Source: Eledone cirrhosa
Lineage: Eukaryota
DNA: 64,000 nucleotides
Reading direction: 5' to 3'
Assembly (NCBI GenBank): GCA_964016885.1
Contig: OZ024747.1
Location: 39,742,001-39,806,000 of the forward strand
A model generated the notes under the pieces. The model searched no databases. It was given only the letters and a program-made list of their open reading frames with translations, and was not told the origin of the DNA. The first letter of the stretch is position 1. The number at the start of each line of letters is the position of its first letter. The position numbers and the translations under genes were made by a program. Of the stretch, positions 4,219 to 50,914 are shown piece after piece.

Positions 4219-5048
4219 CTAGGGCGGGGAAAATTCCCGCGATCCATGGACAAGTTCTCTGCAGCGGTCTCTGTCCCTCATTATCGCTGACATGTCCTGC
4301 GTCTCCAACAGACCAGTGTCTGTCCTTAGGGCATCAACATACGTTAACCTTGGTCTTCCTCTTCCAGTGTGTCCATGTAGGGGCTCCCACAGGAGCACTG
4401 AGTGCAAAGTCAACTCCGGATGCTGGTGAGCATGTCCAGCTAACCTCAGTCTCCTCTGTGTCACTTTTGAGCTGACTTTTGGGAGGCTCTCATACAGCTC
4501 TGAGTTTTTCATCCTCAGTGTATACTGATTAATGTTCAGAGCCATCCTCAGCATTCTCGTGTAGCACCCATCCACCATCTGAGTGAGTTTCTTGGTCCGT
4601 GTCCAAGTCTCAGACCCGTACAGCAGCACAGACTCCACTACAGCAATGAAGCGGCGGATTTTCAGGTCTTTACGAAGGTCTGACTTCCACACCGATCTCA
4701 AGCTGTGGCACGCCGCCCAGGCTTTCCTCTTCCTCTCAACCACATCATCTTCCGTATTCCCAATCTTTGCTCCCAAATACAGGAAGTCCTCCACCAATTC
4801 TAGCGCCTTCCCGCCTACATTAGTGATCCCCTCTGGCTTCTCAACATTCTCTACCAGATATTTTGTTTTAGTCTCATTCATTCTCAGCCCCACACTCATC
4901 GACACAGTCTCAACCTCCTGCATCAAATCCTCTGCCTCCTTCACTGTATTTGTCACCAAAACTATGTCGTCGGCAAATTCAGCATCTGATATCTTTTTCG
5001 CCTTAACTCTCCTGCTCTGAGTCGGTGTTACAGTAAAGCCAGAGTCCT

Positions 5049-7505: not shown

Positions 7506-9285
7506 CAGTTGGATTTATCTTGCTTTATCTTCATACGAGTTATCACCACGTCACAACCAGTGGCCTCAAGAGACAACAAGGTCCGCCATGTTCAAGAAAG
7601 AACATACATACACACACATGCATCTTTAGGTGTATAGACTTGTGATGTACTTATATTGACAGAATCTTCCTTAGTATATGGGCAGTTCCGATTAGTTCTA
7701 TCTTTTGTATTTCTCCTATACGCGGGTTTCCTGGGATTTGCGATAAGTAATCACTAGCCCCCTTAGGTATCATTCCTAGAGCGCCTACAACCACTGGTAT
7801 TGTTTTAGTTCTCAAGTTCCACATTTTTCCAATTTCTATCTCCTGGTCCTTATACTTGCCCAATTTTTCAAATGTTTTTATAGATACATTTTTGTCTATT
7901 GGAACGGACATATCAATTAGCAGGCATACCCTCTTTTTAAAGTCCTTCAATATTATATCAGCTCTATTTGCATCTATTTTTCGGTCTGTTTGGATGCTAA
8001 AGTTCCACAAGATTGAGATGTGATCTTTTTCAAGTATGGGTGGTGGTTGATGCTCCCACCAATTCTTTTGATGGGGCAGGTCAAAATTCTCCAATGTATG
8101 TATTGTGCAGCTCTGTCATGCCTGTTTAGGTATTCGGTTGCAGCTATAGGACTGCACATTGAAATTATACGATCAATGGTCTCTGGTTGTTTTTCACATA
8201 CACGGCATAATGGGTTGCATCCATTTTTTATTATGTTGGCTTGGTAATTTTTTGTTGGCAGACACTGATATTGTGCTGATGTAATCAGTCATACAGTCTC
8301 CGATTTCAGTCAAGAGGATGCCAACCATGGATATGTTAAAGGTTTGTCAACATCAGGATTGTTAGCTCTTTCTGGGGTTTTCCATACAGAGGCTTTTCTT
8401 GCCATTTCTTAGCCAGTTTCTGTAACAGTTCTTTCTTTTCAGTTACGTTTACCTGTTTTGTTTTTTCTGTGTTTTTCATTTCAGCAGTAAATGGAACTTC
8501 TTAAAGTTGTAGTCCATTACTGTAACTTTGTGAATCTTTTGTAATGGAGTATGATCTTTTGATGCTTTCGTGTTTCAAAACGAGTTTGATCATCCAATTA
8601 TGTAATTCCCTTAGATATGTAGATAATCCAATTGTTGCAGTTTTCAACGCAATATCTAACTGGATTAACCCATGTCCTCCTGCTTTCCGAGGGAGATATA
8701 TTCTATCTGTATCTGCCTTAGGGTGATGCATTCTGTGCATGGTTAAGAATTTTCTAATTTCTGTATCGAGCCTACGGATCTCTGTGCTTGACCAGTTGAT
8801 GACATTGTAACTGTAGGTTACTACTGGTATGGCAAGCGTGTTTATGGCATCGATCCTATTCCTTGCACTCAATTCCGTTCTTAAGATTGCTCTTATTCTG
8901 CGGTAACATTCCTCCCTTATCCTTTCCCTCATTGTCGAGTGCTTGATTCCTTCACAAACACCTAGATATTTGTAAGTTTCCTCTTGATCAAGTTCTCTTA
9001 TCACATTCCCCCGATCAAGATTAATGTCTGAACTTTTTAGCAGCTTTCCTCTGGTGAACGTTGCTTTGGCGCATTTATCTAGTCCAAACTTCATTTTAAT
9101 GTCATCACTGAACTGCTTCACAGTGGATAATAGCCCTTGTAATTGTTCATCATTTTTTTCAAATAGTTTCAGGTCATCCATGTAGAACAAGTGATTAATG
9201 GTTTTGTCATAGACTTTATATCCATGTTTTGTTTCATTGAGCATTTTACTTAATGGTATAAGTGCGATGCAGAATAAAAGCGGTG
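7506..9285 (-). mobile_element. Dong/R4-clade non-LTR retrotransposon (RT plus zinc knuckle plus RLE endonuclease), 5'-truncated and decayed
   Basis: Motifs NHLFYMDDLKLF, FGLDKC, YKYLG, YLPRKAGGHGL, YLNRHD and ILWNFSIQTDRKIDANRADII..LLIDMSVP..KY..TIPVVVGALG. Flanked by (TAA)n at both ends (7473-7505, 9286-9297). Confidence 0.9.
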
Positions 9286-9301: not shown

Positions 9302-9471
9302 TGTCCCTCGGAAGTCTCCCCCCTATTGGGGAATTTTTTCATTGTTCTATTATTACATCCTCTGTTTTTTGATTTTTTACACGCAGAAATGCCCTTTTGT
9401 ACCGTCCTCTATTGTCCTGTACAGTCCTTAATGTCTACTTTGTGTAAACCCTTGTGGTTAATAAAGAAAGC
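9302..9471 (+). mobile_element. 5'-truncated copy (3' UTR only) of Tx1 family A
   Basis: Direct repeat of 15215-15383 with about a dozen differences. Ends AATAAAGAAAGC followed by (ATT)6. Confidence 0.9.
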
Positions 9472-9706
9472 ATTATTATTATTATTATTGGCGACCTACG
9501 TAGTAAATCGTATTATCGTGAGCTCCGCAAAGGTTTGTTATTTTCAGTTGTTTAAAATTGCCATTTATGGAAAATTTTTATTGTTAACTGTATATAAGTT
9601 CACATACATTGTTTTCTGAAAAGGACACTCAAAAAGATTGGGGCCTTGAGCCCAAAATTTAAACTTTTTATAATTATCAAACAAAAAAAAATTTCTTTGA
9701 AAAATC

Positions 9707-11734
9707 ATGGCCGACTCAGAGTCACACATTCCTCACAAACTAACTCCTCACACCGACACCACCATTGTAAATATTACTACGTTTGCCAACACTAAAACTA
9801 TAAGCAGGAGTAATATTTTAAATTTGTCTCAGGCAGACATTCATTTCCCGCCATTACCAATGACTGCATGTGTTAAAGCCGCCACCCCCACCACCACAGC
9901 GACAACAGAAACAAAAGAAAAAAATAAATTAACTCGTGATATCGAAATGAATTCAAACAAAATGAACTCTTCCACACCGAACACCACTGACGCCACCACC
10001 ACCACAACTGAAACTAAAATTAACAATAACAAAAATAACGATAACAACAACAACAATGAAATTAAGAAAACTACCCTGTCTTTTGCAAGAGTAGCAAAAA
10101 CGTGCGAAGCGATCCAGGTAACTCAGGAGGAATTAGAAGAAGCCAAAAGAATGGTAAAGAAAGATGGGTACAGGGTCAGCCCCCCCCCCCCCCCCCCCCC
10201 CTCCCCCCACACACCACCTAATAAAATGGAGCATCGTCGCCTATGCACCGTGTCTTATCGGACAATTAACATAAAATCGCGCCGAATGGAACAAAAAAAA
10301 CCACATCAGACGTGGGCAGAAATATGGAACCGTGGACGCGTTCTTTGAAACACCACAGGAGGCCAGAGAACACTCCATGGCCCCATTAAGAAGTGACAAC
10401 TTCACATTCGTCCCAAGCTATTGTGGCCAGAGACTCGTAAAGATCAGGGTGACCCACGTTCCACCGGCCATCGAAATTCCCTGGCTAATGGCTGCCGTCC
10501 TCGAAAAGAAAAGCAGGAGAACTGGTCCGGATCTGGGATGGAGCTCCTGATCCAAGCGGACCATAAAAGCATTGAGGAGATCCCAGAGGTAATAGACCTC
10601 ACTGACGGCAGCCACCTTACCGTAATCGTCAAGGGTAGAAGGCCTAGGTGTGTCATTTGTGGTGAAGGAACCTACCTAAGGGCTTTCTGCCCTCAGGCTA
10701 AAAGGTTGAGGCCCCCCCCCCCCCAGTGACTCAACCATCAACACCACCAGCAGCAGAGATGGCAGCAACAACTGTAGCAGCAACAACAGAAGCAAATGTA
10801 ACAGCAACACCCCCAGCAACAGTAGCAAAACCAACACCACCCAACGCGCCAGAACTAGCACCAGCGCCTACACCATCCACAACGCCACAACCAAAACCAA
10901 CGCCTGTGGAGGATTTTCCACTCCCCGGCTTATCACAACTGGAGACAGATTGTGACGACGAGGAGTGGGAAACGGTATCAGGATAAAAGAAAAAAAGAAA
11001 CCAAAAGAGAAAAAATTCTCTACCTTTTCCCCTCCAAAAACAAAATACAGAGGGAAACAAATAAACTATCAAACAAAAAAGTGAGGACAGATATGCCACC
11101 ATCCACACCAGCATCACCAACTCTATCACCACAAACACCAACACCATCACCATCATTAACCCCAACACCACCATCACCAACAACACAAAAGTCACCAAAA
11201 AGCGAAAATGAAACAAACCCACAACAAACGCAAACAAAACAAAACAACCAAAACGATACACACTACACAGTGGATTTGCAGTGTTGGGAGAGAGTTGGAC
11301 GCCATGCTTTGACGTATAGAGTTACGGCTCTTGCCATTCTGAGTTCAAATCCCGCCGAGATTTACTTTGCCTTTCATCCTTACGGGGTCGATAAAATAAA
11401 GTACCAGTAATGCACTGGGTATTTACTGGCCTTGTGCCTCACGTAGAAACAATTAAATTTGAACAACAACCAATTATTACACTACATGCAACACAACACC
11501 AGCATCACAGAAAAAGACTACACAACAACCCAAAAGTTCACACCTCCTCCACACATACAAATCACTCGCATCACACAGAAAACGTACACAACACTAAAAC
11601 AAAAATTCCCCAAACACATCGGAGACTTCCGACAAGCACTCTCCAGGAGGATTTATAAAGACATCCTGCCGGAGGAGGCCACAAGCAGTGAAAAGGATGG
11701 ACAAACCATCCTTCCTCTACGAGAAGTAAGGTAA
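9707..11734 (+). pseudogene. Tx1 family A ORF1 (gag-like, degenerate zinc knuckle CVICGEGTYLRAFC), frameshifted and SINE-interrupted
   Basis: Fragments align with ORF1 at 30469-32346 (SFARVAK, NFTFVPSYCGQ, VIVKGRRPRC, HYT..NNNQL). Confidence 0.85.
11269..11455 (+). mobile_element. SINE family A inserted in Tx1 family A ORF1
   Basis: B-box gagttcaaatcc, core and gtagaaacaatt tail interrupt the ORF1 homology. Confidence 0.9.
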
Positions 11735-11768
11735 GTAGTCTTTCCCATCTTTTCCACTCCATTTCAAC

Positions 11769-14700
11769 ATGACCTCACTCAGAATAGGCAGCATAAATGC
11801 GCGTGGCGTGGGGTCGTCATGGAAGCAGGGCCACCTTCTCAACGACCTCAGGTCACTAAACATAGATGTAGTGGCCATCAGCGAGACCAGAATCTCCAAA
11901 GCACGGGCCTTCGCACCGATCTTAGGCGGCTACGATGTGTACGCATCTCCCAGCCGTCCAGGATCGGGGGTGGAGTTGCTGTGTTTTTTCGGAGAGGTTT
12001 GGATCTCGCCATACGGGCCATCTTCCTGGACCCAGAAGGTAAGTTGGTGGTGCTAGACGTGACCAGCGGAGACGGGTAAGCTTTCAGGGTAATGGCCGTC
12101 TATGCCCCGACAGGAGCAGGGCGGCCTGATTTCTTCCGGCGTCTGGAGACCTTTCTTGGAACGTCCTGCTCTTTAGTGTTAGTGGGCGACTGGAACAGGA
12201 TCTTAGATGCACGCTGGGACTGTGTGGGATTAGCGGATAGGGGAGGAGGGTGCAAGAGCCTCACCAACCTGCTCAGGCGTTTTGAACTGTCTGACAGGTA
12301 CCGATTGGATTTCCCGAATGTGCCAATGTGGACTTGAACAAATCGCATAGGGTCATCCAGATCATATCTAAATAGAGTATTTTGTAGAGAAATAGATATG
12401 TCTAGCATAGGCTGTCCACAATTCAAGATATTCAGCTACACGGACCACAAATTCGTGATCTGTGTGCTTGACTTAGATAGGCTTCATAGACGAGGACCCG
12501 GCTACTGGAAACTAAACGCGTCCTTACCAACGCGCAAGGCCTACAGAGACCGGATTAGCGAACTAGTTAAGCGGGCGTTGACGGGGGCTATCGTAAACAA
12601 CAAGTGGTGGTTTGCTCTGAAAAGAGCAATTAGAATAGAATCCATTAGGTTTAGTAAGGCTTTAGCAATAGAGAAAAATAGAGCAGAGGGAGATTTAGTT
12701 AGAAAATTAGACGTGCCGCTTAGCAAAGGCATCGCGACCGACATACTTGCGGCGAAATTGGCCCTTGACCAATTCTTCAATGCAAAGCACGAAGGCTGCG
12801 TTGTCGGAGCTAGGGTGCGTGCTCTCAGGCACGAGGGGACGAAAGCCGTTCAATGGGCCCGAGTGGCGGAGGCACGTCGGGGCAACAAAGCCACGATCCG
12901 GCGCATGCCACTCGATCCCGGGCAAATGTGTGAAGCTTTTCAGCGACACTTCGCCCAGTTGTTCGGGAGCAGCGGCGGGCGCTGATCGAGGGATGGACTT
13001 TAGTGTCTACCTCGACGGACTGCCGCGGCTCTCGGCCACTAGGGCGGAGTGTTGAGAAAAGCCGATAACAGCCGCTGAAGTACGGGAGGCAATGTCTAGC
13101 TGCACAAGGGGTAAATCGCCTGGTATGGATGGTCTGCCCTATGAACTTTACGTACAGATGCCAGACTTGTTCGGAGGCCTCTTGGCGGACGTCTACTGCA
13201 ACTGGCAACAGAACGGGAGAATTCCCAGCTCTGTGAGCCGAGGAGCGGTGGCACTGCTGAGAAAGGATCCGAACAAGGGGGATAACATAGATTATTTTAG
13301 GCCCATAACTCTGCTAAACACAGAGTTCAAGATTTTGGCCAAGGTGCTAGCAAAGAGGTTGGCGCTTGTCGTTGGTGGTCTGGGGAGAGGCGCAAACATG
13401 TGCCATTCCCGACAGATCCATCCACGACAACCTCCACCTCATGCGATACATCGTAGAGAGGGTAGCTAGGGACCCTGGCACGAGTGGTACGTGATCAATT
13501 TAGATCAGTCGAAAGCTTTCAATAGGGTCGACCATCGGTACCTAGCGGCAGTCTTGAGGGCGGCTGGCTTTGGGTCCGTCTTCAGAGGCTGGATCGCTGC
13601 TATGCACAGCGACATCTGCTCTGTGGTGAGAGTGAACGGTCCCCTTTCGGAACCGTTCAACATCATGCGCTCGGTACGCCAAGGATGTCCTCTCTCGTCC
13701 CTCTTGTACGTATTGACTCTCGAGCCATTACTACACAAACTGGAGACGTTGAGGGGGTCCCGCGCGAACTAGGATGCGGAAGATACGTGTCAGCATATGC
13801 GGACGATGTCACCGTAGTGGTGTCGAACGCCAAACACATCGAGGCGATCGGCACTACACTAAGAGAATACGAAGCGGTAACAGGAGCAATGATCAACCAG
13901 TAAAAGTCAGTGGGCCTGCAGCTCGGCACCTGGAGAGGCAGGTCCATGCCGTCCAACAGCGTCGTCAGGCGCTGGACGGACGGACCAGTTAAATTACTCG
14001 GGGTCTGGTTCGGTCCGGATCTCAAGACGGACAAAAACTGGGACGAGGTGACGAGCAGTGTGGCTTCCTTACCCAGAAATGGGCCGAGAAGAAGCTATCC
14101 CTGAAAGGTCGAGCGTAGGTGGCTAACGCGTATAACGCGTCCGTCATCTACTACCGCCTGACCGTCGTACCTTGTCCTAAGCCCCGCCTGACTGCGCTGG
14201 AGCGTTTGCTCTTTCGCTTTTTGTGGAAGGGACGCGCTCCGATGGTCAGGCGGTCCATCTGCTGTCAACACCCGCTACGTGGAGGGTTGGGAATGCCGTG
14301 GCTGATGATGCGTAGACACGCACTCAGGCTACGACATCTCCACCTCTTCCTCGACGGTGATCAGGTGTGGTCTCCGTTTGCTAGACGCGTCTTTTCCCGG
14401 CTCGTCTCCTTGGCGGAGCTGCAGTCCTGGGTCAAGCGAAGACCGAGAGGGAGCGCTTGGAGACTGGAATGTCTTCAGGCGCTCACAGCCCTCGACCAAT
14501 CGGGCAATGTTATCGGTGGAAACTCCACCTTGGCATTCTATAGAGGATTAGTGGCGGGGAAGAGCGACGACGTACTTGGGGAAACTCTAGGCGTCGACGA
14601 AAATCAACTAGCCAATCTCTTCGGAAGAACTTTCGGGCCGGGGCCTATGGACAACTTCCAGAAATCCCTGGCCTGGCAGTGCTACCGAGGAGCTTTGCCG

Positions 14701-15133
14701 GTTCGGGATAAACTCTACAGGCATGGAGGTGCCGTCAACCGGGCATGTCCGAGATGCGCGCAGGGAGACGAAACCGTCCTGCACGCACTCGTCCAGTGTC
14801 CGAGCATTGCTGTCGCGTGTAGGACTGATCCAGCTATCAGCTGAGTCCATCGTGAGGATTGTCCCGCCCTCTTCCTTTAGCCGGGAAGGGCAGGCAGTTT
14901 TTATCTGTCTGGTGGCCATGGCGAAAGAGATAGTATGGTGGACACATTTGAAAGGGCTGAAGACTAGCACTTACCTCTTCGGTGATGCCCTGATTAACTT
15001 TTTCAAATTTCATTTAAAAAGGAAAATCAGAGTAGAAAGGGAAGTGCTCTCTTCCCAGCATTTTGTTGAAAGATGGGTGAGAGAGGCAAGAATGGCCCGA
15101 GTGAATGGGCCTACTCTGAGTATGTGTCTGTAA
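11769..15133 (+). pseudogene. Tx1 family A ORF2 (APE endonuclease, RT, C-terminal zinc finger), with stops and frameshifts
   Basis: SINARG, SETR, GDWN, TDHK, KSPGMDG, FRPITLLN, LDQSKAF, RQGCPLS, AYADD and CPRCAQGDETVLHALVQC are spread over several frames. Confidence 0.93.
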
Positions 15134-15400
15134 ATTAAAGGTGGAAAACTGGGAGAGGGCACTTGCCTTAGTGGTCAGGGTCACTGTGGCTTTTTAATGG
15201 GCTTTCTCCACGAATGTCCCTCGGAAGTCTCCCCCCTATTGGGGAATTTGTTCATTGTTCTATTATTACATCCTCTGTTAATTGTTTTTTACACGCAGAA
15301 ATGCCCATTTGTACCGCCCTGTATTGTCCTGTACTGTCCTTAATGTCTACCTTATGTAGACCCTTGTGGTTAATAAAGAAAGCATTATTATTATTATTAT

Positions 15401-30172: not shown

Positions 30173-30236
30173 TCTCTCTATCTATCTATCTAATAAAGAA
30201 AGATATCTATCTGTCTATCTATCTTTCACTCACACG
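30100..30236. repeat. (TC)n/(TCTA)n microsatellite containing the left TSD and an AATAAAGAAAG stub
   Basis: Seen directly. TSD atctatctttcactcacacg at 30217-30236. Confidence 0.9.
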
Positions 30237-30468
30237 ACAATCTAGCTGTCGTCTGTTCTACAGTGTGGATGTCATTCACTTCGCACAGAAGTTTTGTTCA
30301 AATTTATTGAGGAAATTTTGTGAGTTCAAACTTAATTTTGATACAATTGTGTAGCTTGACCCTCCGTCTGAACTGTCAGGCGGTGGGTCAGCTCATCTTT
30401 ACCCCTCCTAGAGGTGAAAAACCTGTTTTAAAAAATTTTGTGTAAAAAATTTCAATCGTCTAACAGAA

Positions 30469-32346
30469 ATGTTGAACGCAGCGAACGAAAATAGTGGTGG
30501 GGGGACAGCGGTAAGAGTTGTAAGCTCGCACGCTTTAGTCCTCCCTTCCTTCCCAACTAACGTCATAGAGAAGGAAGGAAAAATGAAAATAAAAACGGAC
30601 GAATCTGCGGAGGAAAAATTAAATGACGAAAACAACGAAAAAAAAAAATTTGAAAAATTGCATGACAATACTAATAACACAAACAAAGACACAACAAACA
30701 AAAAAATAACAGTTGAAAATAACATCATATCAGAAAACAAAGCAGACGACAAGATTTCTTTTGCACAGAAAACAAAGAAATCTTTGACTTATATAGCGGA
30801 AAACATTTCAGATGTGGTACGAAGGATCACGGACGCAAAACAATACATAAGTGAAGGTGAGAATGGTATTTTATTGGTAAAAATGCCTCAAGAATTCACG
30901 AAAGACATTGAAAGCCGAACGGTCAAGTTTCGGACCATCAACAACAGTACAAAAAAACCTGAACAGCCTTCTCAAGCAGATATCAAAACAGTACTCGCAG
31001 AAGTACTGAATGAAACAACTTTCATAAGAAAAGACAGACTGTATGGAAGCCTAGCAATTATCATGAAGAACGAATCGGCGGCAAAAAAATGTGCTTTGTC
31101 ACCGATTCGTTCGAAAAATTTCACCTTTTATCCATCTTATATGGGAAAAAAAACTCAACGCATATGGCTGGATGCAATGATGCCAGATGTGGACTACTGC
31201 TGGCTCATAGCTGGCTTCATCGATCCAGTGAATGACAACGTGATTTCCATTGGGAAAACCACAGGCAATGCGTTCAGTGGAACAGGTATAGAGCTGGTAG
31301 TACAAATGAAGCCTGAACGCATCGCCCAAATACCCGACAGAATCCTATTAGAGGACCACGGGTATATAAACATTAGCGTGGAGGGGAGAAGGCCGTCCTG
31401 CCATATCTGTGCAGGCAGAGGGCACCTGAAGGCCGCTTGTCCCCAACTCAACAAAAAGAAAACCCTGCTACCAACACCAGCTCCACCACCACCACCACAA
31501 CAGATAAACAAACAACAAAACTCAGTCCCACCCAACCCGTCCCTCAGTAACACCACAACACCACCACAACACAAACAGTCACAACACATTACCCCAAAAC
31601 AAAATACAGGCCCACCCAACCTCTCACTCAATAAAACAACACAACCACCGCAGACACAACACACAACACAGTCTAACATAGTGACATCCATCTCCCCCAC
31701 AAAGAAAACCAACACGGAAACATTACCAGCAAACATACCTCTTCCCTCCAACACTGAAGATAACCCAACGAATTCGGAGGAAGAAACGGAGTCCTTCAGA
31801 CAGATTAAAAGGAAAAAAAGAAAACATGTGCAAAACACACAAGGACAAACAACCCCCACCCAAATCGCAACACAATCTAACAAAACAGAAAACACCCCTC
31901 CAGCAACAAACAAAACCAAACCTGCCCCTCCCCTCTTCGAAACACTCACACCATCGGAAAAAAAGACATTACACTATACTTACATCAACAGAAACAATAA
32001 TAAATTAAATGAACTCATATACAATAATCCTTCGGTACAAACCGAAGGTGTAAACTTTGTTTCATCAGAAAACCACCCACATTTAAAACTAATAAAAATC
32101 CCAATGAACCTCTACCAAAAACTAAAAAAGGATTTTAAGGAGGACGTAGGACCACCCTCTGTCAAACCCATAAACCGCGTCCTACTAAAAAGCTTTCCCC
32201 CTCCCCTTCCCCTCCCCAACACAACTCCAAACACCCCAACCCCACCACACACCGACGACCCCACACCACCACAAGACACCCCTTCACCCAACACCCCCGA
32301 CCCCATGGAAGTCGTGCAACCCGAACCCCGGGAAGCGGAAAGGTAG
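30469..32346 (+). CDS. Tx1 ORF1p, gag-like nucleic-acid-binding protein with CCHC zinc knuckle
   Basis: 625 aa. CHICAGRGHLKAAC (CX2CX4HX4C), a P/T/Q-rich linker and a basic KRKKRK motif. Confidence 0.9.
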   Translation: MLNAANENSGGGTAVRVVSSHALVLPSFPTNVIEKEGKMKIKTDESAEEKLNDENNEKKKFEKLHDNTNNTNKDTTNKKITVENNIISENKADDKISFAQKTKKSLTYIAENISDVVRRITDAKQYISEGENGILLVKMPQEFTKDIESRTVKFRTINNSTKKPEQPSQADIKTVLAEVLNETTFIRKDRLYGSLAIIMKNESAAKKCALSPIRSKNFTFYPSYMGKKTQRIWLDAMMPDVDYCWLIAGFIDPVNDNVISIGKTTGNAFSGTGIELVVQMKPERIAQIPDRILLEDHGYINISVEGRRPSCHICAGRGHLKAACPQLNKKKTLLPTPAPPPPPQQINKQQNSVPPNPSLSNTTTPPQHKQSQHITPKQNTGPPNLSLNKTTQPPQTQHTTQSNIVTSISPTKKTNTETLPANIPLPSNTEDNPTNSEEETESFRQIKRKKRKHVQNTQGQTTPTQIATQSNKTENTPPATNKTKPAPPLFETLTPSEKKTLHYTYINRNNNKLNELIYNNPSVQTEGVNFVSSENHPHLKLIKIPMNLYQKLKKDFKEDVGPPSVKPINRVLLKSFPPPLPLPNTTPNTPTPPHTDDPTPPQDTPSPNTPDPMEVVQPEPREAER

Positions 32347-32379
32347 GTCTCTACACTCTCCTTTGGCTCTGCCGCCCAC

Positions 32380-35300
32380 ATGGATGTGTTAAGAGTAGGA
32401 TGTTTGAATGCACGTGGCCTGGGCTCAACTTGGAAGCAAGCAAAGCTTCTAAATGACCTCAAGTCATGTAGTATAAATGTAATGGTTATCTGTGAGACTC
32501 GAATCAGCGTCATGCGGCAGCTGGCCCCCACCTTCGATGACTTTGAGGTGCATGCATCTCTCTGTCAACCTGGAGGTGGGGGTGGGGTTGTCGTGCTGCT
32601 GCAAAAACACCTGGGTCTTGCCGTACAGGTTGTGCACTCGGACCCGGAGGGTCGTTTGTTGGTGCTAGACGTTGGCAGTAGTGAAAGTGCGGCCTTGAGA
32701 CTGGTCGCCGTCTACTCCCCTTTCGGAGCTGAACGGCCCGACTTCTTCCAGCGTTTGGAGACTTTTCTGGGAACGTCGCGTTCCCTGCTTCTAGCGGGGG
32801 ATTGGAATGACATCCTGGATGCACGTTGGGACTATGCAGGAGCATGTCCTAATAGAGGGGGGTGTAACAGCCTCAAGGGGTTACTCGACCGTTTTAACTT
32901 GGTCGATAGATATCGACTAGATTTTCCAACTGTGCCTACCTGGACTTGGAGAAACCACAGTGGTCAATCTAGATCGTACTTAGATAGATTCTTAGTTAGA
33001 AGTAAGGATAGGGACATATTAAGCTGTCCAGAAATGCGCACGGTTGGCTACACGGATCACAAATTAGTGACCTGCGTGGTCAATCTCGAGAAAACACATA
33101 GACAGGGTCCCGGTTACTGGAAACTTAATTTGTCGTTACCGGCAAAAGAGACTTACAGAAACCGGATTAGCAGATTAGTTAAGGAGAGGTTGACGGGTGC
33201 AATCGTCAACAACCGATGGTGGGCATCTCTCAAAAGAGAAATTAGAACAGAATCAATAAGTTATAGCAAGATGTTAGCTGCCAATAGGAATAGAAACGAG
33301 AAAGAATTAACAGGTAAATTAGAAGAGGCAATCAAGAGCGAAGATGTGGCCAGAGTGATGGCATCGAGGACGGCCTTGAACCAGTTTTTCGATGCAAAGC
33401 ATGAAGGCTGCGTCATTCGAAGTAAAATACGTGCTCTAGGTAATGAGGGGGCCAAAGCCGTTGGATGGGCCCGCGTGACAGAAGCTAAAAGTGGAAATCG
33501 ATCCACCATCCGGTCGTTGCAAGACGAAGATGGACGAGTGATCCGGGAGCCTAAGCAGATGTGCGAGGCCTTTCAAAAGCACTTTGCCCGATTGTTCGGG
33601 GGAGGCGAGGGTCCGGGCCGGGGCGTGGATTTCGGTCCATACCTCGACGGCCTGCCGCGTCTCTCGAACAAAGAGGCAGAGTCCTGCGAGGGACCAATCT
33701 CGGCTGATGAGATCGGAGATGCGCTGAGCCAATGCAGCAGACGCAAATCTCCAGGTCTCGATGGTATACCTTACGAACTTTATTTAGCAATGCCGGTCTT
33801 CTTCTCCGAACTCCTCGAAGCGGTCTACTGCAATTGGCAGCAGAACGGGAGAATTCCTTGTTCTGTAGCCAAGGGCGTAGTCACGCTGGTGAGGAAGGAC
33901 GAGAACAAGGGGGATAGTATAAATAATTTTCGGCCCATAACCCTGCTAAACACAGAGTTAAAGATTTTGGCCAAGGTGTTAGCAAAGAGGTTGGCGCTTG
34001 TCGTGGGTGGCCTGGTGGGAGATGCGCAGACATGTGCAATCCCATCCAGGTCCATTCACGATAACCTCCACCTCATGCGATACATCATAGAGAGGGTTGG
34101 CAACAAACCCGGCTTCGGTGGGGCCCTGATCAACTTGGATCAGTCTAAGGCCTTCGATAGGGTCGACCATGGTTACCTGGATGCGGTGCTAGCGGCGGCT
34201 GGGTTCGGTCCTGTTTTCAGAGGCTGGATCACTGCCCTACATAGCAACCACATCTGTTCTAGGATCAAGGTGAACGGCTACCTTTCGAAGCCGTTCGAAA
34301 TCACACGATCCATTCGACAGGGGTGCCCTCTCTCCTCCCTTCTGTACGTATTGACTCTCGAGCCTTTACTGAGGAAGTTGGAGTTGTTGCAGGGTATCCC
34401 CCTGGAACCAGGATTGAGCAAAGCGGTGTCGGCCTACGCCGATGACGTAACAGTAATGGTATCAACCGACTCGGAGATCGAGGCGATCGGTACCTTACTG
34501 GAGGAGTACGAAAGGTTGTCAGGAGCGAAACTGAACCGGGAAAAATCCATCGGGCTGCAACTCGGAACGTGGAGAGGCAAACCGATGCCTCCTGACGGTG
34601 TCGTCGGACACTGGACGGAGGGCCCGGTAAAGTTGCTTGGGGTCTGGTTTGGACCGGACCTCCAGGTGGAAAAGAACTGGAACGAGGTTACGAACAAGGT
34701 GTTTGCACTAACCCAGAAATGGGCCAAGTGTAAGCTGTCCCTAAAAGGCCGGGCGGAGGTGGCGAACATTTACATAGCGTCCGTCACTTACTACCGCCTG
34801 ACTGTCGTGCCTTGCCCTAAGGAAACACTCACCACCATGGAACGCATGCTCTTCCAATTTCTTTGGAAGAAGCGTCCTCCTATGGTGAGAAGATCCATCT
34901 GCTGCCAACAACCTTCGAAAGGAGGGCTGGGGATGCCGTGGTTGATGATGCGTAGGCACGCATTAAGGCTACGGCACCTACAGGTATTCCTCACTGGTCA
35001 ACCGGTGTGGGCTCCGTTCGTGAAACGAGCCTTTCCGAGACTCGTCTCACTCACCGAGCTACAGTCCTGGGTCAAGCAAAGATCCGGAAAACTGGGAGAC
35101 TGGCACACTGAGTGTGCTCAGGCGCTCAGGGCTCTCTGGCAAGCGGGCCGGGCCATCGGTGGAGAATCCACCTCATCATTCTATAGAGGGCTGGTGGCTA
35201 GCAGGGGCGATGACACCCTTGGAGAGTCGCTGGACATGGAGGAAGACGAACTGGCCAGCCTGTTCGGTAGGACTTTCGGCCCAGGACCAATGGACAACTT

Positions 35301-35817
35301 CCAGAAGTCACTGGCCTGGCAGTGCTACCGAGGGGCTCTACCCGTTCGAGAGAGGCTCTACAGACACGGGCGCCCGGGCAGGGATCCCTCAAAAAAGATT
35401 TGCCCTAGATGCGTGCGTCACGAAGAAACCGTGGCGCACGCATTGGTGCAATGTCCGGGCGTGGCTGATCTGTGGGGCTACGCCGAACAACTGCTGTCGC
35501 GGGTGGCGCCGATTAAATTGACCGCCGAGTCCGTGATGACAATCAAACCGCCTCCCCTCTTCACAAAGGAAGCAAAGGCGGTTTTTCTGTGCGTAATAGC
35601 CATGTTGAAAGAGGTTGTTTGGTGGACACGATTGAAAGGTCTGAGGTCAGGCAACTTCCTCTCTGGCCATAGTCTGGTCTACTTCTTCCGATATCACTTC
35701 GGAAGAAGGATAAGAATGGAGAGAGAGGTGCTTGGCCACAGGCAGTTTTATGAAAGGTGGGTGATAGTGGCGAGAATGGCTCGTGTAAATGGGCCTTCTC
35801 TGTATACCATCCTGTAG
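32380..35817 (+). CDS. Tx1 ORF2p: APE endonuclease, reverse transcriptase and C-terminal zinc finger
   Basis: 1145 aa. APE motifs LNARGL/CETR/AVYSP/GDWN/SYLDRF/TDHK; RT motifs KSPGLDG/FRPITLLN/LDQSKAFDRVDH/RQGCPLS/YADD; CPRCVRHEETVAHALVQC. Confidence 0.97.
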   Translation: MDVLRVGCLNARGLGSTWKQAKLLNDLKSCSINVMVICETRISVMRQLAPTFDDFEVHASLCQPGGGGGVVVLLQKHLGLAVQVVHSDPEGRLLVLDVGSSESAALRLVAVYSPFGAERPDFFQRLETFLGTSRSLLLAGDWNDILDARWDYAGACPNRGGCNSLKGLLDRFNLVDRYRLDFPTVPTWTWRNHSGQSRSYLDRFLVRSKDRDILSCPEMRTVGYTDHKLVTCVVNLEKTHRQGPGYWKLNLSLPAKETYRNRISRLVKERLTGAIVNNRWWASLKREIRTESISYSKMLAANRNRNEKELTGKLEEAIKSEDVARVMASRTALNQFFDAKHEGCVIRSKIRALGNEGAKAVGWARVTEAKSGNRSTIRSLQDEDGRVIREPKQMCEAFQKHFARLFGGGEGPGRGVDFGPYLDGLPRLSNKEAESCEGPISADEIGDALSQCSRRKSPGLDGIPYELYLAMPVFFSELLEAVYCNWQQNGRIPCSVAKGVVTLVRKDENKGDSINNFRPITLLNTELKILAKVLAKRLALVVGGLVGDAQTCAIPSRSIHDNLHLMRYIIERVGNKPGFGGALINLDQSKAFDRVDHGYLDAVLAAAGFGPVFRGWITALHSNHICSRIKVNGYLSKPFEITRSIRQGCPLSSLLYVLTLEPLLRKLELLQGIPLEPGLSKAVSAYADDVTVMVSTDSEIEAIGTLLEEYERLSGAKLNREKSIGLQLGTWRGKPMPPDGVVGHWTEGPVKLLGVWFGPDLQVEKNWNEVTNKVFALTQKWAKCKLSLKGRAEVANIYIASVTYYRLTVVPCPKETLTTMERMLFQFLWKKRPPMVRRSICCQQPSKGGLGMPWLMMRRHALRLRHLQVFLTGQPVWAPFVKRAFPRLVSLTELQSWVKQRSGKLGDWHTECAQALRALWQAGRAIGGESTSSFYRGLVASRGDDTLGESLDMEEDELASLFGRTFGPGPMDNFQKSLAWQCYRGALPVRERLYRHGRPGRDPSKKICPRCVRHEETVAHALVQCPGVADLWGYAEQLLSRVAPIKLTAESVMTIKPPPLFTKEAKAVFLCVIAMLKEVVWWTRLKGLRSGNFLSGHSLVYFFRYHFGRRIRMEREVLGHRQFYERWVIVARMARVNGPSLYTIL

Positions 35818-36117
35818 GTAAAGAAGTAAAGGAGAGGGGAGCACCTTCTCCATGTGCTCCCCGGGCAAAGGATTGCACACTTTTTCGGGGGTGTGTGCAA
35901 CCCCCATCACGTCCCCTCCCTTTTGAGGTTATTTTCGATTATTTTCATGTTACACCCTTTTTACTCGATTATATGTAAACTCCCCCTTTGTATTTGTCCC
36001 TTCTTTTTATGCCTTTATGGTAAATAAAGAAATCTATCTTTCACTCACACGTTCTTACTCTTTCTCTCTCTGCCACTCTCTTTCGATCTGCTTATATCTA
36101 TATAGGGAGAGAGCGAG

Positions 36118-47479: not shown

Positions 47480-49679
47480 ACCCGATGGCCCCTACTCATG
47501 AGAAACCGAAGATAATTAACCTTTCAAAGATATCACTAAAACACAAATTAACATATTAAGGGGCTGAAATTTACACCCACACCACAAAAATCTAACTTCC
47601 CCGAAATGAAAGATGACATGATGGAATTCTGCTGAAAACTCAGACTAATAGAATACTTCTACAATGACACCAACAATGAAGAGGAATCAATAGCCAGAAA
47701 CAAAAGTGATTTCTGCCCACAGAAAGGAAGGAACACAGCACAGGACACCTACTGCGAACACACCATCAACTTTCCCTATGGACAAATTGCAAGCAAACAG
47801 ACGAAATCGAATCTCTCTAAACACGAATGGAAAGAATTATTCGCACGTCGAGATAACACTGAAATAACCACCAAAGAAGCTGATACAGGTATTACTGACT
47901 ACTATAGAGAGCTGGCACTTCAAATCTTACACGAGAACAAGTACTACGAAAAAATAGAAAACTACAAACAAACTAAAACAATGTGGAATCTCCTAGCATT
48001 GCTACAAAAATACCGCAATAGCCTAACCACAAAAGAATTTGATTACATAAACCATTTCAAACGTAATACAAGAGTTTTCTGCAGCTTACCGAAGATCCAC
48101 AAATGTAAACTCCTAAACGATGCATGTGACACTTCGACTAACAAATACATACATTTAACAGCACCAGAAGACTTAAAACTTAGACCAATTATAGCTGTTT
48201 GAAACCAACAGACTTAGCAACTTTCTGGACATCATACTGAAACCCTTAATAAAACACATACAGAGCTACATACGTAATGATCTTGATATGCTGAACCACC
48301 TACCCAAAACAGTAAGTGAAAACATTATTCTTGTCTCCTTTGACGTAGTAAAACTTTACACTAACAAACCCCATAACTATGGAATAACGGCAATCCAGTA
48401 CTGGCTAGACACTCACCAATCTGAAAAACCAACACGCATCAACAAAAACTGTATTATTGATGGACTCCGATTTATCTTACAGAATAATTTTGTTTACTTT
48501 CAATGACTCAACATACCGACAAATCTCAGATACTGCAATGGGCACAAAGGTAGCCCCCACATACGCCAACTTTGTCATGGGATTCCACGAACAACAAATC
48601 TACATCCAATCCCTTTTATTATTCAGAGACTCTTTCCTTAAACTTCTTAGAAATAATTGGAAGAGATACCTAGACGATTGCTTTATACTATGGCAGGAAG
48701 ACATGAATACACTCACTCCTTTCAAAAATATGATAAACAACATTACCAATAACATACAATTTACAATGGAATCCAACTCCAAGGAATTAGTCTTCTTGGA
48801 TATCCTTATATTAAAAACAGATGGGGAAATAGAAACAGACAGTACCTCCTCGTTACATCAAATCACCCAAAACATACAAAACTTAACATCTCTTTTAATA
48901 TAGCCAAACGTATATATGCACCATAGTATCAGACCCAGCTAAACTGGAACAAAGGCTAGATGAACTAAAAAAAACACTCACCTTAAGAGCTTTCCCATTT
49001 GACATAATTAATAACAGAATAGACGGAGCAAAACACGCAAATTTTCATCAACCCAACAACCCAAAGCACAGAGCCACAAACAATACCTTACCATATGTAT
49101 CCACGTTTAACCCCAGAAATACCGAAATGTTCAACCGCCTACACAAAAACCTCCCCATTCTATTTAAAAATAAAAGAATGAAAAAAATCCTAGAAATACA
49201 AAAGATCATCAAAAGTAAAAGGCAACCCAAATCACTAAAACACATTCTCACTGGAACAAATATACACAAACCAATCTCCAACCTTACGGTAACAAAATAC
49301 AGAAGAACAAACAGTGGCACATGCTATACTTCATTGAAGGACAACATTTTTTACAAACTTTTACAGTGAAAAACAACTTCACTTGTAACTCTGAGAACAG
49401 GATCTACATAATCACATGCGACGGATTTCGATATAACTACATAGGACAGACGGGTTTGTCATTACGCAAAATAATGACCCTCCATCGCCAACAAATCCGA
49501 GACGTAAGCACAAGAAAAATCCCCTTAAGTAGCCATATTGCAGATTGTGCAGGAATTACCCTACCAAACTTTAAAACCTCCCCCTTTTACAAATGCCTCG
49601 TTTCTATCATTCAACAACAAAGAATAAATAAAGAAAAACTATTTATTAACCAATTTAAATATGTAATGACCCCTATCAG

Positions 49680-49680
<1 letters not shown>
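47480..49680 (+). mobile_element. Penelope-like element (Neptune-type RT plus GIY-YIG endonuclease), decayed
   Basis: KGLKFTPT, LPKIHK, LRPII, LVSFDVVKLYTN, AMGTKVAPTYAN, WKRYLDDCF, FLDILI and the GIY-YIG segment IYIITC..YIGQTG..H. Multiple frameshifts. Confidence 0.92.
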
Positions 49681-49737
<57 letters not shown>

Positions 49738-50914
49738 ACACACACATGTACACACACACACACACATACACACACACCACGAAATAAGACAGAAAATATT
49801 GCTCATCATACACATTTTCTTTTTTTAATCTTCCCATCAAAAAGGAACCTCTGACAGACAGGTTGAAGCACACACACGCCCCCCCCCCCCCCCACATGTG
49901 TGTATTTTTATATATACAGTCTCACATGTTCACACTCACACGCTCTAAAACCATATCCCCAAAATAGAATTTCTTTTACAACCCTACTGTTGCCAATCCC
50001 ATAGAATTTGTTTCTATCTGAACTCTTGACCAGTCCATTAACACAATTGAGATACACATGTATTTACAGAATATTTCTTTTGTCCCTAAAAACAATTTTA
50101 TTCTGTGAAGAAACACACCTACCAACACTGCTGCTGTTACTACCACCTCTCTCTATACACATGAGTTCATTTTCCAGTCTCCTTCTCAACAAGGAAGATG
50201 AAAAACTTACCTCAACACTTAATTTTAAATCTTTAATTGTTAGTTTTTAATCCTTATTAATTCTTTTTAATTGTAATACTCAACATTTTATAAGATGAAG
50301 ATGAATTTTAAATAATACATTGAAACCAGTAATACTTTACATACTTTATATAAAACTCTTCTTTTTTTAAAAGAATTGTCCCTTTCATTCTTTCAATAAT
50401 GTCACTTTAACGAATCAAAGAAAGGAAAAAAAAGAAAAACAGACCCTTAATTACATTTTCAGTGCTATTTCCAATTTCACCTTCTCTCTCTCTCTCTCCT
50501 CTCGCTCTCTCTATCTCTAAATATATATATATACATGCATTCATTTATGATGGGCATTGATGAGCTTGGTCTCTCTCAAGTTTCACCTGCGCACTCACAG
50601 TATCATCAGTGTATGATGGTCCTGCGAGTACGCAAGTGAGACTCCAGAGAAACATGGCTTAGCCATAATAAATACTTCGGTATTGAGTTTTCATTCTTAC
50701 ATCCGTCAATAATACACGTACTCTCAAGTCTTGAATAATAGCTCCCACCATCACCACCACCACCACCACACCGCTTATTAATTTGTCAGATCCCCCACCC
50801 AGTTTTATTCCACCGGCACCCACCACCCACTTATTAAATTTTTCTAATCTATCTCCGACCGAAATGTTGTTGTTAGTGATTTATATTGATTCACCAGCTG
50901 GATAATTTAATAAT

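Follow-up and report, generated by a model that had tools for sequence, protein, structure and literature searches.

Two LINEs with a splice-donor motif at the ORF1 stop

The window analysed here is a stretch of 64,000 nucleotides (nt) of the Eledone cirrhosa genome (assembly GCA_964016885.1, contig OZ024747.1, positions 39,742,001 to 39,806,000 of the forward strand). It contains two long interspersed nuclear elements (LINEs) of different families, referred to as A and B, each with a first and a second open reading frame (ORF1, ORF2) separated by a short spacer (Table 1). In both elements the end of ORF1 reads as a 5' splice site lying across the stop codon, AG/GTAAGT in A and AG/GTAGGT in B (the slash marks the putative exon-intron boundary). 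A preliminary description of the window proposed that this donor and the AG of an arginine codon, codon 5 of ORF2 (AGA in both elements), bound a mini-intron of 51-52 nt whose removal would fuse ORF1 to ORF2 in frame.

On re-reading the sequence, we found the positions, the motifs, codon 5 and the two proposed intron stretches to be exact; the spacers are as rich in pyrimidines as described, and around the motif they are so different that they cannot be aligned. For every GT we scored the match with the complementary sequence of the 5' end of U1, using an 11-base consensus. Of the 297 GT sites in A the ORF1-stop donor ranks first, and of the 299 in B it shares the first place; its score was reached in a narrow window at the stop by 3/2000 dinucleotide shuffles of A and 4/2000 of B. 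Because of this top or joint-top rank and the few shuffles that equal it, the donor at the ORF1 stop is real and beyond chance in A and B. A GT across a stop codon is in itself common; one also lies over the ORF2 stop of each element.

Table 1. Features of elements A and B in the window (positions counted from its first nucleotide).
Feature	Position	Strand	Remarks
Element B	30237..36031	+	Intact two-ORF L1/Tx1-like LINE, between target-site duplications
B target-site duplication, 5' copy	30217..30236	+	20 bp, in TATC-type microsatellite
B target-site duplication, 3' copy	36032..36051	+	
B ORF1	30469..32346	+	625 aa; CX2CX4HX4C knuckle and ZCCHC3/RRM-like region; ends AGG TAG
B 5' splice-site motif	32341..32348	+	AG/GTAGGT across ORF1 stop, GT at 32343-32344
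B inter-ORF spacer	32347..32379	+	33 nt, 76% pyrimidine, in frame, stop-free
B ORF2	32380..35817	+	1145 aa; APE endonuclease, reverse transcriptase, zinc-binding C-terminus
B proximal AG	32392..32393	+	Acceptor of the preliminary description; AAG with a pyrimidine share of 0.58; weak, ranked 32 among 255 AGs
B ORF2 stop region	35792..35823	+	Pyrimidine-rich run, then TAG/GTAAAG; candidate distal acceptor, tied best B YAG
Element A	9489..15400	+	Full length, decayed, (TTA)n on both sides
Older family A copy	9302..9488	+	3' tail immediately upstream of the full-length copy, with 94% identity to 15215-15400
A ORF1	9707..11734	+	Interrupted by frameshifts and, at ~11270-11455, by an inserted dispersed repeat; AGG TAA at the end of the last frame
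A 5' splice-site motif	11729..11736	+	AG/GTAAGT across ORF1 stop, GT at 11731-11732
A inter-ORF spacer	11735..11768	+	34 nt, 76% pyrimidine
A ORF2	11769..15133	+	Disrupted by numerous frameshifts and stops; 70% identical in DNA to the ORF2 of B; ATG at 11769
A proximal AG	11781..11782	+	Acceptor of the preliminary description; CAG with a pyrimidine share of 0.63, ranked 20 among 264 AGs

The B ORF2 product scores over the Pfam cut-offs for RVT_1 and Exo_endo_phos and slightly under that for zf-RVT (26.9 vs 27.5), and its best match in the Protein Data Bank is human L1 ORF2p (E 5.5e-51). In the B ORF1 product the CCHC knuckle is readable in the translation; Pfam gives no match, and zf-CCHC and ZCCHC3-like atlas clusters match at 0.89-0.92. 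A protein search with B ORF1 returned no longer fused form among 545 candidates and no relative of near length among 705, both being weak negatives. Copy A is decayed, as 16 of the 19 gaps in the alignment of its ORF2 with that of B are not multiples of three; the frame of A that ends AGG TAA is backed by its resemblance, judged by eye, to the tail of B.

Tx1-clade LINEs (Kibi, Koshi, Tx1, Keno) have the same two ORFs, with an apurinic endonuclease (APE) and a reverse transcriptase (RT), and Tx1 elements are described with the same microsatellite or own-tail targets and with tandem arrays (PMC4494074). A similar preference for repeats, with target duplication, is seen in the window, where A lies in (TTA)n beside its own tail and B is flanked by its 20-bp duplication. 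Judged by coding content, the elements are ordinary L1-group, Tx1-like LINEs, a likeness by features and not by placement beside named Tx1 families. Directly after the B ORF2 stop, at 35835-35910, are two short inverted repeats (stems of ~9 and ~8 bp, by eye), and the 3' untranslated region (UTR) of A is unlike that of B with these repeats.

Conservation of the donor in related families

Among bacterial genome records, a scan turned up 43 loci, which lie in two metagenome-assembled records (G001 and G002). These two evidently include animal DNA, likely as host contamination of the bins, as inferred from their LINE arrays and microsatellites; the long animal contigs are C3-C19 of G002 (L004-L045, L077) and C16 of G001 (L046). 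The G002 arrays hold ~70 LINE copies, most with an open ORF2. Family D accounts for 42 loci, forms tandem arrays in G002, and has an ORF2 40-41% identical to that of B. Its junction reads GAG TAA G/GTAAGT, then four bases, then YTG ATG, so that the donor lies right after the ORF1 stop instead of across it and the ORF2 ATG is 13 nt downstream of the donor. The donor is kept in all 65 D copies, 64 of which have ORF1 ends with the exact stop-donor-ATG pattern and the 65th one extra A. Across the eight D subfamilies the seven donor bases are invariant, while three of the next seven spacer bases vary. The D array copies are not independent of each other, and three deep lineages were sampled in all. 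By U1 match the D donor is tied third of 366 GT sites.

In the narrow window at the stop, the donor score was reached by 9/2000 shuffles for D and 8/2000 for a further family, F, which resembles D in having the donor after the stop and an Asn codon at the proposed acceptor position (AAC in D). Family G (three tandem copies with intact ORF2 frames, a 5-nt spacer, and 48% and 40% identity by BLASTP to D and B respectively) has no donor at its ORF1 stop, where 380/2000 shuffles scored as well in a window one base off. ORF1 and ORF2 are out of frame in D, F, and G. Among decayed kin in G001, L046 has a donor 3 nt after TAG, L093 reads AAG/GTAGGA, L048 has the GT mutated, and L050 has lost the spacer. 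The ORF1 end of L093 stands without an ORF2 match, yet a decayed ORF2 start follows it. In L094/L050 (G001:C16 near 419550), a ~21-nt deletion beginning at or near the donor has removed the spacer and the ORF2 ATG, and it does not end at AG.

In a quick tree of unnamed proteins, one supported clade takes in B, together with P0001, and D, together with P0002, P0003, and P0008; a start-of-protein filter excluded G from this tree, and G was placed by BLASTP instead. Conservation over deep branches thus holds for the donor but not for the acceptor or the fusion. Since the D donor comes after the stop and has no matching acceptor, it cannot fuse the two ORFs. A weak upstream GT across the D stop, which would join the Arg of an NVRG motif in phase, was rejected as a substitute; its use would delete a conserved endonuclease Asn, and one D copy lacks this GT. 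Further metagenome scans gave either nothing or three bacterial false matches (L001-L003), which were dropped, viral scans gave no relatives, and one of 150 relatives of G002 had a weak match. An Rfam search with three D loci gave three sub-threshold microRNA matches alone, and no small nuclear RNA or leader-RNA target.

The proposed mini-intron

Removing 11731-11782 (52 nt, ending CTCAG) from A or 32343-32393 (51 nt, ending TTAAG) from B in silico does yield an open fused frame. The preliminary description had stressed that the join is in frame in both families despite different offsets between ORF1 and ORF2 (+1 in A, 0 in B). The join holds, but it is no independent evidence, because it is forced by geometry: a GT that combines the final base of ORF1 with the T of the stop codon, and an AG at the first two positions of an Arg codon, are both in phase 2, as are 76 of the 246 AGs in B ORF2. 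Moreover, since A is decayed, its +1 offset is unreliable and may be unlike that of the active family.

The ORF2 ATG stands four codons ahead of Arg5 in A, in B, and in an A-like contig end. Among 154 related proteins, 92 have a detectable start motif, and 39 of these have Arg or Lys at the position of codon 5; P0040, a close relative (52% identical over residues 3-114), has Lys there. The preceding position, Leu4 of ORF2, is hydrophobic in 75/84 relatives. P0004 had been considered as a spliced fusion of an ORF1 tail to ORF2 and was rejected, its join being the end of ORF1 translated in the frame of ORF2, which is also seen in frame 0 of D; on back-translation alone, its Gly-Lys-Cys could hide a donor after TAG. 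Folding of the A and B junctions revealed no common structure by eye, in a comparison run without a shuffle control.

Contigs from four of six sequencing runs with element B were aligned on 32200-32720, and three of these runs cover the junction; run X6, with 4/29 bins, does not. The intron-less genomic copies that retrotransposed spliced RNA might have left were not found among the contigs of the three covering runs, in which no joint from 32342 to 32394 occurs, the two joints listed being a replaced segment and a joint with unknown sequence in between. Contigs drop rare variants, and a further 83 loose ends and 63 single-letter differences lie outside those considered; from the contigs it follows that intron-less copies make up no major class in the genome, and nothing stronger.

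Loose contig ends of runs X1, X2, and X5, from two organisms, reveal a third subfamily, C, in which ORF1 ends GAG AGG TAA GT and is followed by a spacer of ~24 nt, in frame and stop-free; its would-be intron measures 41-42 nt if the alignment is gap-free. An A-like ORF2 start in run X5 has CAG at the proposed acceptor place. The donor is therefore more widely kept than the preliminary description had noted, being present in C, in D, and in decayed kin, but the conserved mini-intron that it envisaged, with its acceptor and fusion, could hold for A, B, and C at most. As for conservation of GTRRGT and AG across further families, the first is borne out by C and D, whereas D has AAC at the place of Arg5 and G has no donor. 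Outside the A/B/C lineage, in short, the donor either follows the stop (D) or is missing (G), losses of the kind that the preliminary description had itself said would count against its proposal.

Possible roles of the donor and known parallels

As the leading candidate, though short of a probable one, we tentatively propose that the donor is a U1 site for splicing ORF2 out, giving an ORF1-only mRNA, with ORF2 translated by reinitiation. U1 would bind the donor, on or just after the ORF1 stop, in part of the transcripts, and splicing would remove ORF2 by joining the donor to a predicted distal acceptor near the end of ORF2 or within the 3' UTR. Nonsense-mediated decay obeys a 50-nt rule, and the ORF1-only mRNA, with its junction within a few bases of the stop, would escape it. 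Unspliced RNA would yield ORF2 protein (ORF2p) by reinitiation at its own ATG, and the benefit may be an excess of ORF1 protein (ORF1p). Under cis-preference, the ORF1-only RNA, which makes no ORF2p, would seldom be copied back into the genome. In D the coding product would be ORF1p alone, because a splice from its donor, whatever the acceptor, leaves the ORF1 stop in place and takes out the ORF2 ATG. The Met and Leu4 of ORF2, which lie inside the would-be mini-intron, are kept in A and B, as a start of ORF2p at its own ATG through reinitiation would predict. For B, a splice into the TAG of the ORF2 stop would keep the ORF1 end unchanged.

Several points weigh against this proposal, which is drawn from DNA sequence. 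B and all eight D subfamilies have 12 YAG sites of ORF2 in common, and in these the pyrimidine share nowhere exceeds 0.63. At the 3' end, the best acceptors are not above chance in A, B, or D, being matched by 319/500, 293/500, and 127/500 shuffles respectively (13/500 in G). No ORF2-less copy was found among 65 D copies, an ORF2 start following every D ORF1 end, and the short units checked in the G002 arrays were 5'-truncated or rearranged and none was spliced. In A, B, and C a splice from the donor removes the stop, so the second exon must bring one. Family G has an intact ORF2 without the donor, and the motif is therefore dispensable in its lineage. After the ORF2 stop, A and B have no significant second donor (571/1000 and 213/1000 shuffles); the presence of one in D at 15 nt (23/1000) and in G at 38 nt (5/1000) counts in favour of the proposal.

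In D and G (L009:7477-7530 and L077:9568-9660), this strong second donor is followed by a variable U-rich run and then by a block that is conserved between the two families despite 48% ORF2 identity; it is possibly a 3' UTR intron or a recognition signal for ORF2p. The truncated D copies start at the same place after the tail. Locus L097 (G002:C9:16000-34500) has at least two identical 5'-truncated units of 3.1 kb in tandem, pointing to array growth by DNA-level duplication besides insertion.

The nearest competitor to an ORF1-only RNA, which we regard as rather unlikely, is that U1 binds without splicing and either shields ORF2 RNA from premature cleavage and polyadenylation or controls nuclear export, with ORF2 again reached by reinitiation. 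This would fit a donor conserved without a conserved acceptor, and also the lack of spliced genomic copies of any type among the contigs, D copies, and array units. It would fit as well the pyrimidine-rich run that comes after the donor in A, B, and C and after the 3' UTR donors of D and G, a run of this kind being expected of a donor enhancer. There would be little to shield, however, as AATAAA/ATTAAA signals number 0, 1, 0, and 0 within the ORF2 of A, B, D, and G respectively, and 5, 7, 4, and 3 within ORF1, which lies upstream of the donor; the tight placement at the stop codon would also go unexplained. Such a splicing-independent role is reported for the donor of the Arabidopsis retrotransposon EVD (PMC5580714). 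The fusion of the preliminary description, limited to the A/B/C lineage and serving as a major or minor source of ORF2, is in our view improbable, even though in A, B, and C the donor precedes the stop, the pyrimidine-rich spacer is free of AG so that the first AG past the donor is the phase-2 AG of Arg5 (A and B), the A-like contig end of X5 keeps CAG, and human introns of 37-65 nt exist, if rarely (PMC4463651). The fusion is impossible from the conserved donor of D and F, and the absence of the 32342-to-32394 joint from the three covering runs, weak evidence from contigs, runs against the copying in cis that it predicts; absent spliced copies weigh more on the fusion than on an ORF1-only RNA because an RNA for the fusion would yield ORF2p and is expected to be copied, which an ORF1-only RNA is not. 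Nor do the 32nd-ranked AAG acceptor of B, the short intron of C, or the Lys of P0040 suit it, and the Met and Leu4 that it makes intronic are kept in A and B, with a hydrophobic residue at Leu4 in most relatives; its in-frame join, as noted, is forced. No more probable than the fusion itself is a splicing switch that changed role, the post-stop donor of D dropping ORF2 and that of A/B/C having moved ahead of the stop, where a mini-intron of 41-52 nt gives a Gag-Pol-like fusion from an RNA kept from retrotransposition.

Two further readings dispense with U1, and we hold each to be slightly more doubtful still. In one the motif acts in translation, as a termination-reinitiation signal or, in B and C, as a readthrough context. 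The motif does always lie at the stop, the spacers of B and C (33 and 24 nt) are in frame and stop-free, and both SART1 and caliciviruses are known to have reinitiation signals close to the stop (PMC5972666). On the other hand, D, F, and G are out of frame, the variants GTAAGT, GTAGGT, and GTGAGT all stay within the splice-donor consensus, and a like motif follows the ORF2 stop of D and G, where nothing is reinitiated. TAA, the stop in A, C, and D, is moreover the least leaky stop, which counts against readthrough. The other reading is that there is no function: a last codon ending in G before TAA or TAG makes an accidental GT, which the families then inherited. The missing motif in G, the commonness of a GT across stop codons, as at the ORF2 stops of A and B, and the sampling of three deep lineages with non-independent array copies would agree with this. 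The shuffle tests and the retention of the motif amid unalignable spacers argue the opposite, and the D motif stands off the stop codon, where coding cannot maintain it. In order of probability, we thus place an ORF1-only RNA ahead of U1 binding without splicing, the latter ahead of a fusion in A/B/C, and a translational signal and no function last, level with each other. The fusion is impossible in one branch (D) and unsupported in the branch of the window.

Close parallels to an ORF1-only RNA come from copia elements. In EVD a conserved donor near the end of the structural gene yields an RNA for the structural protein only, and U1 also blocks early termination there (PMC5580714); BARE1 of barley likewise makes a spliced RNA for the structural protein only (PMC3735527). 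Human L1 has usable splice sites as well, and its protein-making spliced RNAs are copied in cis as SpIREs, with spliced copies making up ~2% of full-length human L1s and the L1 proteins preferring the RNA that encodes them (PMC5860796). Its ORF2 is translated by unconventional reinitiation across a 63-nt spacer (PMC5972666). The likeness has limits: the copia elements have long terminal repeats (LTRs) and one Gag-Pol frame in which splicing creates the stop, whereas a LINE with two ORFs is concerned here, in which the stop pre-exists and splicing is only predicted; the donor of human L1 lies within the 5' UTR and gives dead-end products. For the fusion, the nearest parallel is Ogre, whose intron reportedly lies between coding regions and joins them. 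Ogre, a plant Ty3/gypsy LTR element, is described as a retrotransposon with a functional intron (PMC12786077).

Outside subscription journals and Repbase, we found no description of a donor at a LINE ORF1 stop or of an ORF1-ORF2 splice fusion; the motif is apparently undescribed, and repeat libraries may already contain the families. What is known of how two-ORF LINEs arrive at their large excess of ORF1p over ORF2p comes mostly from mammalian L1 and SART1, in which the control is translational. If the proposal of an ORF1-only RNA is true, one LINE lineage would set its ORF1p/ORF2p balance through U1 and probably splicing, converging on the solution of copia elements.

Elsewhere in the window, the full A copy is a tandem insertion into the (TTA)n tail of its own family, and the older tail upstream shares 41 exact bases with the 3' end of the full copy. 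The ~190-bp repeat inserted in A ORF1 is an abundant dispersed repeat, found at ~20 other places in the window; together with the microsatellites, it gives the host the look of an octopus. Three further stretches (4219-4923 and 8501-9244 on the minus strand and 49321-49854 on the plus strand) we take to be mobile-element fragments; from their translations, they are presumably two fragments of RT C-termini from other types of LINE, plus one GIY-YIG-like (Penelope-type) piece.

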